A DNA stretch of 64,000 nucleotides from Candidatus Latescibacterota bacterium (GTDB lineage: Bacteria > Latescibacterota > UBA2968 > UBA8231). Positions 53,474 through 58,617 of the stretch are shown piece after piece (the stretch's first letter is position 1; every line of letters starts with the position of its first letter). A program made the position numbers and the translations under genes. The stretch covers positions 3,904,001 to 3,968,000 of the forward strand of contig CBDETY010000003.1 in the NCBI GenBank assembly GCA_965243025.1, read 5' to 3'. Under the pieces are notes generated by a model. It had not been told where the DNA came from. It searched no databases and saw only the letters and a program-made list of their open reading frames with translations.

Positions 53474-54658
53474 ATGCTGACCACCGAACAATTACAGGCG
53501 TTGATGGCAGACGGTGAATCGGACCGCGTGGCGCTGACGACGTCCACCAGGGACACCGATAAATTCGCGCAGGCCATCTGTGCCTTTGCCAACGACTTCC
53601 CCGATCACCGGCAGCCGGGCTATCTCCTTGTAGGCGTGCACGACGACGGCAGAGCCAGCGGTCTGTCCGTCGATGATCGACTGTTGCGGGACCTGGGGGA
53701 ACTGCGCTCAAACGTCAACCTAGAGCCGCTCCCGGTGATGACCGTGCAGAAGTGCACGTTGCCCCAAGGGGAAGTGGCCGTGGTGGAGGTGCTTCCATCC
53801 GAGCTGCCTCCCGTCCGCTACAAAGGCAGGGTCTGGATACGGGTCGGACCTTCCCGGCGCGGGGCGAACCAGCAGGAAGAGCGCATTCTCACGGAGAAGC
53901 GGACCGTTTTCCAAAGGCCCTTCGATGCCCGGCCCTGCCAAGGCTGCACGCTTGACGAACTGGTCCTGGATCTGTTCCAGGTAAGCTACCTTCCGGCGGC
54001 GGTGGCTCGTGACGTAATCGACGAGAACGAGCGAAACACCCCTGAACAGATGGCATCCCTGCGCTTTTACGACCTTACCGCCGACTGTCCGACGAACGCC
54101 GCCGCCTTGCTGTTCGCCAAGAGGCCCCTGCACTGGATTCCTGGAGCCTGGGTTCAATTCGTCCGTTGGGCAGGAACGACGATGGCCGACGAACCGGTCG
54201 GCGAGAAGAGATTCAGCGGGGACTTGCTCACCCTTCTGCGCGAGCTCGAAGCGTTCATCACGGTTCCTGCACAGTCCCGTCCGGTGGCAGAATCGGCTCT
54301 GCGGGACCGGGCTGAGAGCGACTACCCGCAGGTGGCCATCCGAGAGTTGCTGTTGAACGCAATCATGCACCGTTCCTACGAGTCAAACGCACCCGTACGG
54401 TTTTACTGGTACGATGACCGCATGGAAATCCAGAATCCAGGGGGGCTGTACGGGATGGCCTCTCCGGAGAACTTCCCGAGGCAGACGGATTATCGAAATC
54501 CGGTCATAGCGGAGGCCATGGCGACGTTGGGCTATGTCAACCACTTCGGTCGAGGCGTCATCAGAGCGCAGGATGCCTTGCTGAAAAACGGGAACCCGGA
54601 AGCGGAATTCACCTTCGAGCCCGCCAACGTGCTGGCCACCATTCGAAGAAAGCCATGA
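53474..54658 (+). CDS. AlbA_2 (Schlafen-like) domain + RecG-C/HATPase_c_4 domain protein
   Basis: AICAFAND, LLVGVHDDG, RELLLNAIMHRSY, NPGGL, RNPVIAE, FGRGV. Confidence 0.85.
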   Translation: MLTTEQLQALMADGESDRVALTTSTRDTDKFAQAICAFANDFPDHRQPGYLLVGVHDDGRASGLSVDDRLLRDLGELRSNVNLEPLPVMTVQKCTLPQGEVAVVEVLPSELPPVRYKGRVWIRVGPSRRGANQQEERILTEKRTVFQRPFDARPCQGCTLDELVLDLFQVSYLPAAVARDVIDENERNTPEQMASLRFYDLTADCPTNAAALLFAKRPLHWIPGAWVQFVRWAGTTMADEPVGEKRFSGDLLTLLRELEAFITVPAQSRPVAESALRDRAESDYPQVAIRELLLNAIMHRSYESNAPVRFYWYDDRMEIQNPGGLYGMASPENFPRQTDYRNPVIAEAMATLGYVNHFGRGVIRAQDALLKNGNPEAEFTFEPANVLATIRRKP

Positions 54659-55644
54659 AAACCGTCGCTTTCTTCAACAACAAGGGAGGAGTCGGCAAGA
54701 CGACTCTGGTCTACCACCTCGCCTGGATGTACGCCGACCTCGGCATGTCGGTTGTCGCGGCTGACCTCGATCCGCAGGCGAATCTGAGCACCATGTTCCT
54801 GAGTGACGACCGGCTCGAGGAGTTGTGGCCGGATGGAGATCATCCGGAAAGTATCTACGGATCGGTCTCCCCGATCCTTCGCGGTCTTGGTGACATCGAC
54901 GACCCGCACGTAGAGGTAATCCTTGAAAACCTCGGCCTTCTGGTGGGCGACCTTGGTTTAGCTCGGTTCGAAGCCAGGCTCTCCTCCGCATGGCCCGACT
55001 GCATGAACCGCGACGAGGCGGCTTTCCGCACCGAGTCCTCCTTCCATCGAGCAATTCTGAAAGCGGTAGAGATACGGGAAGCCGATCTGGTATTGATCGA
55101 TGTCGGCCCCAACCTGGGAGCGATCAACCGCGCGGCGATCATTGCAGCCAATTTCGTCGTTTTCCCGCTCGCCCCGGACCTGTTCTCGCTGCAGGGACTT
55201 CGCAACCTCGGGCCGACTCTGCGCGATTGGCGCAGCCAGTGGCAGGATCGCATGGATCGACGTCCCGACGACCCGAACCTGCCCCTGCCTTCAGCCGACA
55301 TGAAGCCGGCAGGCTATACAGTCATGCAGCACGCCGTGCGGTCGGGGAGTCCCGTTCAATCATACCAGAGATGGATGACCCGCATTCCCGGTGTCTATCA
55401 CAAGGAGGCCCTCGGGGAAGATGCCCCAACGGCCTCCTCGACGGATGACGACCCCGAATGCCTCGCTACGCTGAAGCACTACCGCAGCCTGATGCCGATG
55501 GCCCAGGAAGCGCGGAAGCCGATGTTCCAGCTCAAGGCCGCGGATGGGGCTCTCGGTGGTCATATCCACGCCGTGCAGGACTGCTACGCCGATTTCAAGG
55601 CACTGGCGGAATCGATAGCTGACAAGTGCGGAATCGAGCGGTAA
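54655..55644 (+). CDS. ParA-family ATPase
   Basis: FFNNKGGVGKTT, DLDPQANL, IDVGPNLG, PDLFSLQGL. Confidence 0.9.
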   Translation: MKTVAFFNNKGGVGKTTLVYHLAWMYADLGMSVVAADLDPQANLSTMFLSDDRLEELWPDGDHPESIYGSVSPILRGLGDIDDPHVEVILENLGLLVGDLGLARFEARLSSAWPDCMNRDEAAFRTESSFHRAILKAVEIREADLVLIDVGPNLGAINRAAIIAANFVVFPLAPDLFSLQGLRNLGPTLRDWRSQWQDRMDRRPDDPNLPLPSADMKPAGYTVMQHAVRSGSPVQSYQRWMTRIPGVYHKEALGEDAPTASSTDDDPECLATLKHYRSLMPMAQEARKPMFQLKAADGALGGHIHAVQDCYADFKALAESIADKCGIER

Positions 55645-55857: not shown

Positions 55858-57618
55858 TTACTCCCGGATCCCTATGTGGAGTTCCCGCAACTGCTCAGGC
55901 GAGACCTCGCCCGGTGCGCCCATGAGCGGATCCTGCGCATTCTGGTTCATCGGGAAGGCGATGACCTCCCGGATGTTCGGTTCGTCCGCCAGCAGCATGA
56001 CGATGCGGTCGATGCCGGGGGCGATGCCGCCGTGGGGCGGAGCGCCGTAACGAAAGGCGCGGATCATTCCCCCGAACCTGCGATCCACTTCCCGCCGCGC
56101 ATGTCCGGCAATCTCGAACGCCTTGTACATGATGTCCGGCCTGTGGTTGCGGATGGCACCGCTCGACAGTTCGAGGCCGTTGCAGACGATGTCGTACTGA
56201 TACGCCTTGACCTCCAGCGGCGGTTGCGTCTCCAGCGCAGCCATGCCGCCCTGCGGCATGGAGAACGGGTTGTGCGAAAAGGCCACGCAAGCGCGTTCCT
56301 CGTCCCATTCGTACATGGGAAAATCGACGACCCAGCAGAATTCATAACAACCCTCCCGCCGCAGGTCGAGCCGGTCTGCCAGATGCAGGCGCAACCGTCC
56401 CGCCAGGGCCGCTGCCTCGGATGGCGCGCCGGCGATGAAGAAAACGGCTGACCCCGGAGCGGCTGCGCAGTGCTCGAAAATGCGGCTGCGCACGCTCTGT
56501 TCCAGGGCGGCGGCAAATGATCCTGTGGCCTGCGCTCCGTTGATTAGGTAGGCCAGCCCCTTGCCGCCCGCCTCTTTGACGAATGCTTCGAGGCCGTCGA
56601 AAAACGAGCGCGGCTGCCCTTCCATCTCAGGAACGCACAGGGCGCGGACGACCCCGCCTGCTGCGACGATGTCCCCGAACAGCCTGAACGAGGAGTCCGC
56701 GAAGATCCCGGTGAGGTCCTGGATTTCGAGACCGAAGCGCAGGTCTGGTTTGTCCGTGCCGAACCGCAGCATGGCGTCGGCATGGGAAAGACGCGGGAAC
56801 GGCGGCGCGGTCACTGCCCAATCGGTGAACTCGCGGAAGAGACCGGAAAAGAGTTCCTCGACCACGGCGAAGACGTCCTCCTGTTCGACGAAGGCCATCT
56901 CGAGATCGAGCTGGTAGAATTCGCCGGGGGAGCGGTCGGCGCGGGCGTCTTCGTCGCGGAAGCAGGGCGCGATCTGGAAGTAGCGGTCGAAGCCGGACAC
57001 CATCAGCAACTGCTTGAACTGCTGCGGCGCCTGCGGCAGCGCGTAGAAGCGGCCGGGATACAGCCGGCTCGGCACGAGGTAATCGCGCGCGCCCTCGGGC
57101 GAACTGCTGGTGAGAATGGGCGTCTGGAACTCGGCAAAGCCCATCTCCGTCATGCGCCGCCTGATGCTGGCGATCACTTCCGAGCGGAGCTGAATGCGGC
57201 GGTGCAGCCCTGCCCGGCGCAGGTCCAGGAAGCGATAGGACAAGCGGGTGCTCTCCCCCACTTCGGGATCTTCGGCCACGGAAAAGGGGAGCGGCTCCGC
57301 CGGCGAGAGCACTTCCAGCTCGCGAACGGCGATTTCCACTTCTCCCGTCTCCATCGCGCTGTTGACGGTCTCAAACGACCGTTCGCGCACGTCGCCTGCG
57401 ACGCTGATTACGGATTCGCGGGGGACCTTTGACGCGATTGCCGCAGCGTCATTGTCCGGCAAGATCACGAGCTGGGTGATACCGTAGTGGTCGCGCAGAT
57501 CCAGGAACAGTATGCCTCCGTGGTCCCTTTTGCGATGCAGCCAACCGCTCAGGCGAACGGTCTGGCCGGCGTGGCGCTTGCGAAGTTCGCCGCAGGTGTG
57601 GGTGCGATAGCGGTGCAT
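55858..57618 (-). CDS. aspS: Aspartate--tRNA ligase, probably non-discriminating (Asp/Asn)
   Basis: [45 protein letters not shown]; RBS GGAGG. Confidence 0.97.
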
Positions 57619-57646
57619 GGCCACCTCCAGTTTTTGGATGTACATG

Positions 57647-57679
57647 AAAAACCGCCGTCGGCGCGAGGCTCAACGGCGG
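57647..57679 (-). terminator. Attenuator terminator 2 upstream of aspS
   Basis: mRNA CCGCCGUUG-agccucgcgc-CGACGGCGG-UUUUU (9-bp stem plus U-tract). Confidence 0.85.
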
Positions 57680-57702
57680 GTTGGGGTGAGAGTGTAATCC
57701 GA

Positions 57703-57795
57703 TCACGGCCAACGCCATCGAGCCCGAATGGCGGGATTATTGTCGTCGTTGTCATGCGAAATAGCGCGTGCCGTGTGCTTGTAGCGAAATGTCAT
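57703..57795 (-). CDS. Leader peptide 2 (30 aa, MTFRYKHTARAISHDNDDNNPAIRARWRWP)
   Basis: SD UAAGGAG; six consecutive Asp/Asn codons; 3' end overlaps the antiterminator arm. Confidence 0.85.
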   Translation of the reverse strand: MTFRYKHTARAISHDNDDNNPAIRARWRWP

Positions 57796-57809
57796 CTCGT
57801 AAACTCCTT

Positions 57810-57850
57810 AAAACAGAAAACCCGCCGCGATGCGTGTTCGCGACGGGTTT
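57810..57850 (-). terminator. Attenuator terminator 1
   Basis: mRNA AAACCCGUCGCGA-acacgca-UCGCGGCGGGUUUUCUGUUUU (13-bp stem, U-tract). Confidence 0.85.
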
Positions 57851-57879
57851 GGGATTCTCGGATTCGGTTGGAGCAGTCG

Positions 57880-57966
57880 TCAGAACACGCGTAATGGGGC
57901 GATCGGATTATTGACGCCGGCGTTGGCTGGATAATTCTGCCTGCGGTCTTTCTGACGGGCCATCAT
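57880..57966 (-). CDS. Leader peptide 1 (28 aa, MMARQKDRRQNYPANAGVNNPIAPLRVF), near-leaderless
   Basis: ATG 8 nt after the -10 box; four Asn codons ending in NNP; stop codon lies within the antiterminator arm. Confidence 0.72.
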   Translation of the reverse strand: MMARQKDRRQNYPANAGVNNPIAPLRVF

Positions 57967-57974
57967 GCTCTTGC

Positions 57975-58003
57975 AACGTATGAGGAGGGCCGCACTCCGT
58001 CAA
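57975..58003 (-). promoter_or_regulatory. Sigma70-type promoter of the aspS leader
   Basis: TTGACG-17 bp-TACGTT on the minus strand, just after the soxR stop. Confidence 0.7.
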
Positions 58004-58014
58004 ACCCGCTTCCT

Positions 58015-58485
58015 TCAACCGCCGGATGCGCCCACTTTCCCGGAACCTCCCATCAGGGAACTGCCGTCGACGCGGGATGCCATCTCGTCATCCCGGTTGA
58101 AGAGCGAGCACGACCGCAGGGACAGGCAGCCGCAGCCTATGCATCCCGTGAGGTTCTCTTTCAACCGCTCGAGCGTCTCAATCCGCTCTTCCAGCTGATC
58201 CCTCCAGCCCCTCGACAGGCGTGCCCAGTCCGCCTTGTTCGGTGTGCGCCCGTCCGGAAGCGTGTCCAGCGCTGACCGGATTTCCCGGAGCGGCACTCCG
58301 ATTCTCTGGGCGGCCCGAATGACGGCGACGCGGCGCAATACCGCCTGTCGATACCGGCGCTGGTTCCCGCCGGTCCGCTCCGAGGCGATCAGGCCCTCGG
58401 CTTCGTAAAACCGCAACGCAGAGGTCGCGACTCCGCTTCGCGCCGCTACGTCCCCGATGGTCAAAGTGGGTGAAAGTGGTGCCAC
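58015..58485 (-). CDS. soxR: Redox-sensitive transcriptional activator SoxR
   Basis: MerR HTH, GNQRRY and CIGCGCLSL..C [2Fe-2S] motif. Confidence 0.96.
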   Translation of the reverse strand: MAPLSPTLTIGDVAARSGVATSALRFYEAEGLIASERTGGNQRRYRQAVLRRVAVIRAAQRIGVPLREIRSALDTLPDGRTPNKADWARLSRGWRDQLEERIETLERLKENLTGCIGCGCLSLRSCSLFNRDDEMASRVDGSSLMGGSGKVGASGG

Positions 58486-58495
58486 AAGGTTTTCC

Positions 58496-58526
58496 TTGAC
58501 TTCAAGTATACTTGAAGTTGCAGATT
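58496..58526 (+). promoter_or_regulatory. SoxR-controlled promoter with SoxR box
   Basis: Perfect palindrome ACTTCAAGTA-TACTTGAAGT (58499-58518) between -35 TTGACT and -10 CAGATT, with the 19-bp MerR-type spacer. Confidence 0.92.
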
Positions 58527-58617
58527 CGATCCAGGCTCATCCGAAGAGCCTGCCTTACCGGCTTCGGTGACCTGGAACCAGGGAAGCGGATGCCGGAAAC
58601 ACCGAAAGGAGAAAACC

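Follow-up and report, generated by a model that had tools for sequence, protein, structure and literature searches.

Putative tandem Asn/Asp leader-peptide attenuators ahead of an accessory aspartate--tRNA ligase gene in Candidatus Latescibacterota

The genome of a Candidatus Latescibacterota bacterium encodes two aspartate--tRNA ligases (AspRS), and the gene for one of them, aspS2, is preceded by a short open reading frame (ORF) with six Asp/Asn codons in a row, alternative hairpins and a terminator. What does this arrangement do, and why would an accessory AspRS need it? We address this question in a 64,000-nucleotide (nt) stretch of contig CBDETY010000003.1, here called the window. All coordinates are those of the window, and the leader elements and aspS2 lie on its minus strand. 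The leader unit nearest aspS2 (unit 2) had been described in an earlier note, made from the sequence, as an attenuator with a complete set of 1:2, 2:3 and 3:4 hairpins. It is preceded by a further unit (unit 1) that is rich in Asn codons. We conclude, with a probability of about 0.82, that the two units are tandem ribosome-mediated transcription attenuators that control aspS2 and sense the charging of Asn- and Asp-tRNA. The codon content makes biological sense because the controlled gene encodes an aspartate--tRNA ligase.

Anatomy and folding of the two leader units

The elements of the unit-2 attenuator are present in the sequence. A Shine-Dalgarno site AAGGAG (57804-57809) lies 8 nt ahead of the ATG (57795-57793), and its AGGAG is nearly invariant in relatives. 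The start codon opens an ORF of 30 codons (57703-57795) that encodes MTFRYKHTARAISHDNDDNNPAIRARWRWP and has 16 full homologues and one partial homologue. Codons 15-20 are GAC AAC GAC GAC AAU AAU (57736-57753), six of six being Asp or Asn. Segment 1 (CGCCAUUCG, 57733-57725) starts 3 nt after the last Asn codon and pairs across the loop GGCU (57724-57721) with CGAUGGCG (57720-57713), forming a 1:2 hairpin (57713-57733) of 8 bp with one bulge and a free energy of -10.2 kcal/mol. Segment 2 (57709-57725), delimited by sequence, folding and alignment, is the 5' strand of the antiterminator, and the UGA stop codon (57703-57705) follows 4 nt past it. Segment 3 (57666-57684) is common to the antiterminator, in which it pairs with segment 2, and the terminator, in which it pairs with segment 4. 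The intrinsic terminator (57647-57679) consists of an 11-bp bulged GC-rich stem, CCGCCGUUG/CGACGGCGG (57679-57652, -19.0 kcal/mol), and a U5 tract (57651-57647) that ends 28 nt before the ATG of aspS2.

These readings uphold the earlier note on the ribosome site, the start codon, the D/N codons, the 1:2 hairpin, segments 2 and 3 and the terminator with its U5 tract. The 2:3 pairing likewise exists where it had been placed, but its base pairs divide differently: the note gave 13+4 bp, and counting from the sequence gives 12+5 bp with a CC bulge (17 bp). An alternative frame (57549-57755, beginning at ATG 57755 and reading MTTTTIIPP...), which would make a Thr/Ile-like leader, was rejected. Its ATG occurs only in the genome of the window (G000), where it is created by CAT-GAC. 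At this position the 15 remaining sequences of the alignment read CATAAC, GCTAAC or otherwise, and the frame runs for 68 codons, reaching into aspS2.

The earlier note had left the balance between the competing helices to be computed. The 2:3 helix has -30.1 kcal/mol against -19.0 kcal/mol for 3:4, which makes it more than competitive. The states of the leader were modelled by constrained folds in which the ribosome is a steric mask, a model of geometry. The unmasked leader, from the ATG to the U tract, has a minimum free energy (MFE) of -45.2 kcal/mol, with the terminator formed (outer pair probability 0.725) and segment 2 bound by upstream leader sequence. With a D/N codon in the A site and the mask reaching 10-15 nt beyond it, the MFE structure is the 2:3 antiterminator, at -35.2 to -39.2 kcal/mol. 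Masking to 13 nt past the stop codon leaves the terminator alone to form, at -19.0 kcal/mol. Ten units from seven loci were also folded as transcripts that end before the 3' arm of the terminator, with the ribosome mask placed over the D/N codons; all 10 form an antiterminator, which takes up 8-15 nt of the terminator 5' arm and loop. Together with the AspRS target and the conservation upstream of orthologues, these three states support the classical attenuator geometry that the note had proposed.

Because the 2:3 helix is three times as stable as the 1:2 hairpin, and segment 2 ends just 4 nt short of the stop codon, we think that in this model termination comes about mainly when the ribosome at the stop codon covers segment 2. 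The weak 1:2 hairpin probably contributes no more than this masking does and would then be a helper or pause element.

Unit 2 is the promoter-distal member of two predicted attenuators acting in series. The unit-2 ribosome site follows the unit-1 U tract after just ~10 nt, so that polymerase would reach unit 2 only by reading through unit 1. A putative promoter that would drive both is formed by the -35-like hexamer TTGACG (57998-58003), which the consensus scan missed, and, 17 nt after it, the -10-like hexamer TACGTT (57975-57980). TTGAC[AG] is found at the same place in most of 28 unit-1 loci (24, counted by eye), and most relatives have TATCTT at the same spacing where the window has TACGTT. 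The -10-like box lies 8 nt ahead of the ATG of the Asn-rich unit-1 ORF (57880-57966), which encodes MMARQKDRRQNYPANAGVNNPIAPLRVF. Since this ORF has no Shine-Dalgarno site and its ATG lies so close to the box, it is probably leaderless or near-leaderless. Homologous leaders occur in 27 loci of the family, typically as MMTRQNDRTQNNNNPLAPLRVF. The last codons and the UGA stop fall within the antiterminator strand GCGUGUUCUGACG (57878-57890), which, as long as the unit-1 terminator lacks its 3' arm, pairs with the 5' arm and loop at -17.7 kcal/mol. The terminator and its U-rich tract (57811-57850) have a stem of 10-13 bp (57850-57818), the loop ACACGCA and -22.0 kcal/mol, and are the only site flagged by a simple terminator scan. 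Among 27 sequences, 96.0% of alignment cells are paired in the antiterminator, with two double changes, and 100% in the terminator.

Conservation and specificity of the leaders

AspRS2 genes occur in 33 of the 76 genomes of the same family (E <= 1e-190). The upstream regions of 32 were examined, G081 having no locus, and one of these (G052) lies at a contig edge, leaving 31 assessable loci. All 31 have an Asn/Asp-rich frame and a terminator: 27 carry unit 1, 17 carry unit 2 (one of them partial) and two carry a variant, described below, in which the codon run is the tail of a lysine--tRNA ligase (LysRS).

The unit-2 run is purely D/N in 16 of the 17 loci, including the partial one in G056. The exception is G004, which has NSDSNNN with two Ser. 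The runs seen include DNDDNN, NNNDNN, NNDDNN, NDNDNN and DDNN, and the changes within them are G/A at first and C/T at third codon positions, exchanging Asp and Asn or remaining synonymous. Among the 15 close sequences, indels in the ORF are of 3 nt in five and 6 nt in one, so the reading frame is kept, and a 1-nt indel occurs only past the stop codon. In the alignment of 16 sequences, all of them distinct, 97.8% of cells are paired in the antiterminator, with two double changes; shifting the register by 1-3 columns lowers this to 52.8% or less. The terminator is paired in 100% of cells with one double change, and the 1:2 hairpin in 96.1%, invariant and with no double change. These pair counts show maintenance of the predicted helices rather than strong covariation.

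The codon runs stand out against the genome. The genome has 65.4% GC, and Asn makes up ~1.8% and AAT 0.41% of the codons in its long ORFs. Asn accounts for 68 of 471 residues in the unit-2 leaders and 140 of 675 in the unit-1 leaders, an enrichment of about 8- to 12-fold, and the rare AAT codon is heavily used. Across the family it is mainly Asn that is enriched; Asp is so only within the unit-2 run. When all six frames of the genome are scanned for ORF ends in which five or more of six residues are D/N, eight matches result, of which only unit 2 mixes Asp with Asn and adjoins an aminoacyl-tRNA synthetase gene; three of the seven other, D-rich matches also have a downstream T run. A scan for ORFs of 15-46 codons with at least four Asn in ten, a stable hairpin and a T run returns unit 1 alone (in two rows, for its two in-frame ATGs). 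Neither genome-wide scan finds an N-containing leader with a terminator beyond the two at aspS2, and no leader is seen in this genome upstream of asnS or of the housekeeping AspRS gene aspS1.

The motifs are equally confined across the family. Seventeen of 76 genomes contain the unit-2 core without mismatch. It lies ~100 nt before AspRS2 in the 17 with known AspRS2 coordinates, and in G056 a further exact copy stands next to a unit-1 motif on a different contig (C163). Three matches with one mismatch have different sequences; two are in genomes without a detected AspRS2 and the third is ~2 Mb from it, and all three look like chance. Single copies of the unit-1 motif occur in 26 of 76 genomes, likewise beside AspRS2 except in G056, where the copy is on C163. 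Further afield, among 80 AspRS loci of the genome_contigs set (56-83% identity) the sole carrier, L037, is the same DNA as G091, and the 79 others have no such leader. There is likewise none in 80 AspRS loci of the metagenome_contigs set (55-70% identity), in which two D/N matches are unrelated ORFs. A covariance scan of 57000-58600 against Rfam, with E up to 10, finds no leader family and no T-box (RF00230), giving chance-level matches only (CrfA at 20.1 bits, Collinsella-1 at 12.6 bits).

The leader region takes several forms among relatives. Unit 2 (window 57621-57803) is present or absent among close relatives (G073, G078, G067, G061 and G050 versus G020, G010 and G091), and loci that lack it show two types of junction. 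In one, aspS2 takes over the leader AGGAG as its ribosome site; in the other, the tail that normally follows the unit-2 terminator is attached to that of unit 1. The first type is also found in a contig from run X1, where 57620 is joined to 57804 and 183 nt are skipped. The two junction types suggest loss of unit 2 by deletion between short repeats (GGAG, or GGCGGGTTTT). In the locus of G062 (L214), ~330-180 nt upstream of aspS2, the unit-1 leader has no 5' part or start codon and contains an in-frame TAG, and the unit-1 terminator and the whole of unit 2 are intact.

One genus (L221 of G080, 2-1414, ~1300-1500; L222 of G082; L013 of G014) has its D/N stretch (…DNNRDNNNQGNNNH…) inside a lysine--tRNA ligase gene. 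The LysRS match (508.1 bits) covers residues 1-425, the D/N stretch is in a 45-residue C-terminal tail, and a terminator and aspS2 follow. An attenuator of this form would rely on the ribosome that completes translation of the upstream gene; translation could alternatively start at an in-frame ATG (MVKAR...). A metagenome contig (L118, 250-3149) encodes a 66%-identical AspRS relative, with the match spread over 2449 nt, and the DNA just upstream encodes a LysRS-like motif (ERFEVFVCGIELGNAYSELNDP). It may hold a lysS-aspS fusion or a tight operon.

Proposed switch, asparagine physiology and rival explanations

We propose the following switch. Transcription would start upstream of unit 1, and each unit would encode a leader peptide, Asn-rich in unit 1 and Asn/Asp-rich in unit 2. 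With Asn-tRNAAsn and Asp-tRNAAsp plentiful, the ribosome would reach the UGA at 57705-57703 and cover segment 2, the 3:4 terminator would form, and RNA polymerase would stop at the U5 tract, 28 nt before aspS2. With either charged tRNA scarce, the ribosome would stall on the six D/N codons and cover segment 1 and the 5' leader. Segment 2 would then be free, and the 2:3 pairing (-30 kcal/mol) would sequester the 5' arm of the terminator and allow readthrough into aspS2. An untranslated leader would fold into the terminator state. The sequence elements, their computed energies, their conservation and the gene content are observed, and from them we infer leader translation, codon-specific stalling, termination or readthrough and the charging of tRNAAsn by AspRS2.

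What would a second AspRS contribute? The genome encodes AsnRS (asnS, 472 bits), GlnRS (glnS, 659.9 bits) and GatB (526.5 bits). Profile searches of it find no AsnA, and the best asnB-like match reaches 101.9 bits against a cut-off of 267.1. Because AsnRS, GlnRS and GatCAB are present without a recognisable asparagine synthetase, asparagine would have to be made on tRNAAsn, from Asp-tRNAAsn. The single tRNAAsn has a U1-A72 pair and tRNAAsp has G1-C72. The U1-A72 pair of tRNAAsn is required by bacterial GatCAB (PMC4206432). Deinococcus and Thermus make asparagine only on tRNAAsn and use for this a second AspRS that is non-discriminating (PMC4206432). Should AspRS2 charge tRNAAsn, an increase in this enzyme would ease a lack of Asp-tRNAAsp and, by way of GatCAB, of Asn-tRNAAsn, and raising both charged tRNAs would explain a leader with both Asn and Asp codons.

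A wider proposal follows, to which we give slightly less than even odds. The attenuators may sense charging in order to gate the tRNA-dependent route to asparagine. AspRS2 would be a non-discriminating enzyme of alphaproteobacterial type, gained by horizontal transfer, whose gene stays off as long as AsnRS can draw on free asparagine. A fall in Asn-tRNAAsn (units 1 and 2) or Asp-tRNAAsp (unit 2) would induce the gene, and its product would feed GatCAB.

Several observations weigh against these readings. On the side of physiology, several AspRS2 genomes (G010, G020, G021 and G022) also have asnB-family genes, the same-genus genomes G001 and G002 have gatB and asnS and no AspRS2, and across 41 relatives the presence of AspRS2 does not cleanly track the absence of asnB. 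The anticodon-binding domain carries the RDHGG motif in AspRS1 and AspRS2 alike, and the sequence therefore does not mark AspRS2 as the non-discriminating copy; the His of this motif has been linked to non-discrimination. The review literature that was searched gives no residue rule separating discriminating from non-discriminating AspRS. As to the RNA, the folding energy of the whole 176-nt region is no better than that of shuffles (z -0.40), and the terminator scan flagged the unit-1 terminator only, not the bulged one of unit 2 (one found, 1.6 expected). Even with a stalled ribosome, the terminator stays the thermodynamic optimum in G021, whose unit 2 is the most distant, and in the majority of unit-1 elements, so that the switch there must be kinetic. 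Covariation is thin, 15 of the 16 sequences being close (84% mean column identity), and the slide control is biased by a tested structure taken from the window's own sequence. Unit 2 is missing from 14 of the 31 assessable loci and is therefore dispensable. Evidence from RNA libraries (three metatranscriptome runs with 5-8% of sampled words) amounts to one 1080-nt contig from a ~91%-identical relative, covering 56756-57839; DNA carry-over is possible, and assembled contigs cannot show starts, ends or levels.

The elements could instead form an attenuator that does not read tRNA charging, with incidental D/N codons. Its output would be set by translation rate or ribosome availability, by an effect of the nascent peptide or stop codon (RWRWP-UGA), or by a protein such as AspRS on the leader RNA. 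Feedback by an aminoacyl-tRNA synthetase on its own leader is known for E. coli ThrRS (PMC2965389). The C-terminal PAIRARWRWP is more conserved than the remaining peptide, the stop is always UGA, and the 1:2 hairpin has no covariation, all of which this explanation would accommodate. The conserved C-terminus, however, overlaps segments 1 and 2, so RNA pairing explains its conservation. Three observations speak against incidental codons. The D/N run is kept in 16 of 17 unit-2 loci (G004, with two Ser, being the exception) while the codons around it change; 27 unit-1 leaders and the LysRS-tail variant preserve an independent run of N; and Asn is enriched ~8- to 12-fold. We consider an attenuator blind to charging unlikely.

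Another explanation dispenses with regulation and sees an ordinary terminator or insulator after soxR, the gene upstream, with a fortuitous ORF. GC-rich DNA is indeed rich in spurious ORFs (88 in 7 kb), the folding z is -0.40 and terminator-like sites are no commoner than in shuffles. Yet the upstream gene varies between loci while the leader, terminator and aspS2 stay together as a block. The elements occur once per genome beside aspS2, with in-frame indels and a conserved D/N run, and the aligned leaders are not assembly duplicates, all 16 rows being distinct. A second terminator 28 nt before the gene start also makes no sense as an insulator, and we regard chance as very improbable. The short ORFs might also encode small proteins, or their RNAs act in trans, with the place before aspS2 secondary, since leader peptides and attenuator RNAs with trans functions exist (peTrpL and rnTrpL of Sinorhizobium). 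The peptide is, however, poorly conserved between distant members (G021 and G000) outside the D/N run and the part that overlaps the helices, and a trans role would be compatible with a cis mechanism; as the primary function it appears highly improbable.

Related systems and the aspS2 cassette

Leader-peptide attenuators are well known from the trp, his, pheA and thr operons of E. coli, and the pheST leader stands before aminoacyl-tRNA synthetase genes. Known examples sense amino acids such as Trp, His, Phe, Thr, Leu, Ile/Val, Cys and Pro. The locus described here shares with them a short ORF with a run of cognate codons, predicted 1:2, 2:3 and 3:4 hairpins, a terminator before the gene and, as in some of them, an aminoacyl-tRNA synthetase as target. 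It differs in its Asn and Asp codons, in having aspS as target, in matching no Rfam leader family, in a 2:3 helix much stronger than 1:2 and in a stop codon beyond segment 2. The proposed mechanism is classical, and what is notable is the Asn/Asp specificity, the accessory AspRS as target, the tandem arrangement and the host lineage. To our knowledge, no attenuators have been described in Candidatus Latescibacterota. A literature search found no Asn/Asp leader before aspS; attenuator surveys in subscription journals were outside its scope, and an earlier description is possible. The one aspS match is an unspecified predicted RNA motif in Shewanella (PMC2659441), and leader-peptide attenuators have been predicted for trpS2 and leuS in Streptomyces (PMC1262725).

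A close counterpart is the T-box of Clostridium acetobutylicum, which controls ND-aspS/gatCAB, the genes of a tRNA-dependent Asn pathway (Saad et al. 2012, 2013, cited in PMC4206432). There, and by our proposal here too, an additional AspRS copy answers to a leader that monitors the charging of tRNA for Asn supply, with transcription antitermination as the output, and the title of the 2013 paper speaks of two specificities in one leader. The T-box binds tRNA directly, whereas we propose a translating ribosome on Asn/Asp codons, in another lineage. Deinococcus radiodurans and Thermus thermophilus resemble the present genome in having AsnRS, GlnRS, GatCAB and two AspRS, no asparagine synthetase and a U1-A72 tRNAAsn (PMC4206432). 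Their second AspRS is archaeal-type (PMC4206432), whereas the one described here is bacterial-type and groups with alphaproteobacterial-type enzymes. Among 18 genera with AsnRS, GlnRS, GatCAB and no Asn synthetase, all five genomes reported to have a second AspRS are Deinococcus-Thermus (PMC4206432).

Tandem and leaderless arrangements also have parallels. In the mgtCBR leader of Salmonella, two short ORFs follow one another, and each is linked to alternative stem-loops, which govern transcription into the coding region (PMC3641672). There the ORFs respond to different signals in a virulence and Mg2+ operon, whereas here both units have the same codon class and each its own terminator. Unit 1, apparently leaderless or near-leaderless, resembles the leaderless polycysteine ORFs of mycobacteria, which are Cys-responsive attenuators (bioRxiv 10.1101/834739). 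Unit 2 differs from these in its strong AAGGAG site.

If the attenuators do gate the tRNA-dependent route, they would be the first report of ribosome-mediated attenuation of aspS and of the transamidation pathway, and the codon content of a leader peptide could predict the tRNA specificity of the synthetase it controls. The locus would offer a regulatory reason for two AspRS genes beside AsnRS and GatCAB in a genome without asparagine synthetase, and a genetic handle on when bacteria use the indirect route to Asn-tRNAAsn. The relatives with one unit, two units, a broken unit 1 or the D/N stretch as a lysS tail are natural variants for dissecting tandem attenuators.

The controlled gene, aspS2 (55858-57618), encodes 586 amino acids and matches NF001750 over residues 1-585 with 797.4 bits. 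Its start was set at the conserved MH(R/P)YRTH (MHRYRTH in the window, 57618), where homologues begin, and not at the ATG of the longer ORF at 57645. Its Shine-Dalgarno site GGAGG (57624-57628) lies outside the terminator and is not sequestered. The second AspRS of this 6.8-Mb genome, the housekeeping AspRS1, is encoded elsewhere, is 44% identical to AspRS2 and is found in nearly all relatives.

A quick IQ-TREE tree of 50 chosen rows (14 of the 33 AspRS2, 14 AspRS1 and 22 of 80 outside matches) places AspRS2 in a clade of its own (SH-like approximate likelihood ratio test, SH-aLRT, 100), beside a group of mainly alphaproteobacterial enzymes that are 56-62% identical to it. AspRS2 was probably acquired horizontally. 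The AspRS2 of the window is 89-93% identical to those of another genus (g14, 21 of 31 genomes) and is nested among them in the tree. Its AspRS1 groups with the two other genomes of its own genus, G001 and G002, from both of which AspRS2 is absent. This pattern suggests that the cassette of leader and aspS2 was transferred within the family or lost in the genus mates. In G019, an AspRS2 fragment (C1:3148923-3149633) covers only residues 180-416, with 83% identity in an open frame of 466 amino acids, and is probably a remnant.

The cassette is flanked upstream by a gene for a SoxR-family regulator (58015-58485, minus strand, 203.8 bits), a neighbour that differs in other genomes. On the other side lies a plus-strand ORF (54655-55644) for a ParA/MinD-like ATPase, named by eye from its KGGVGKT motif.

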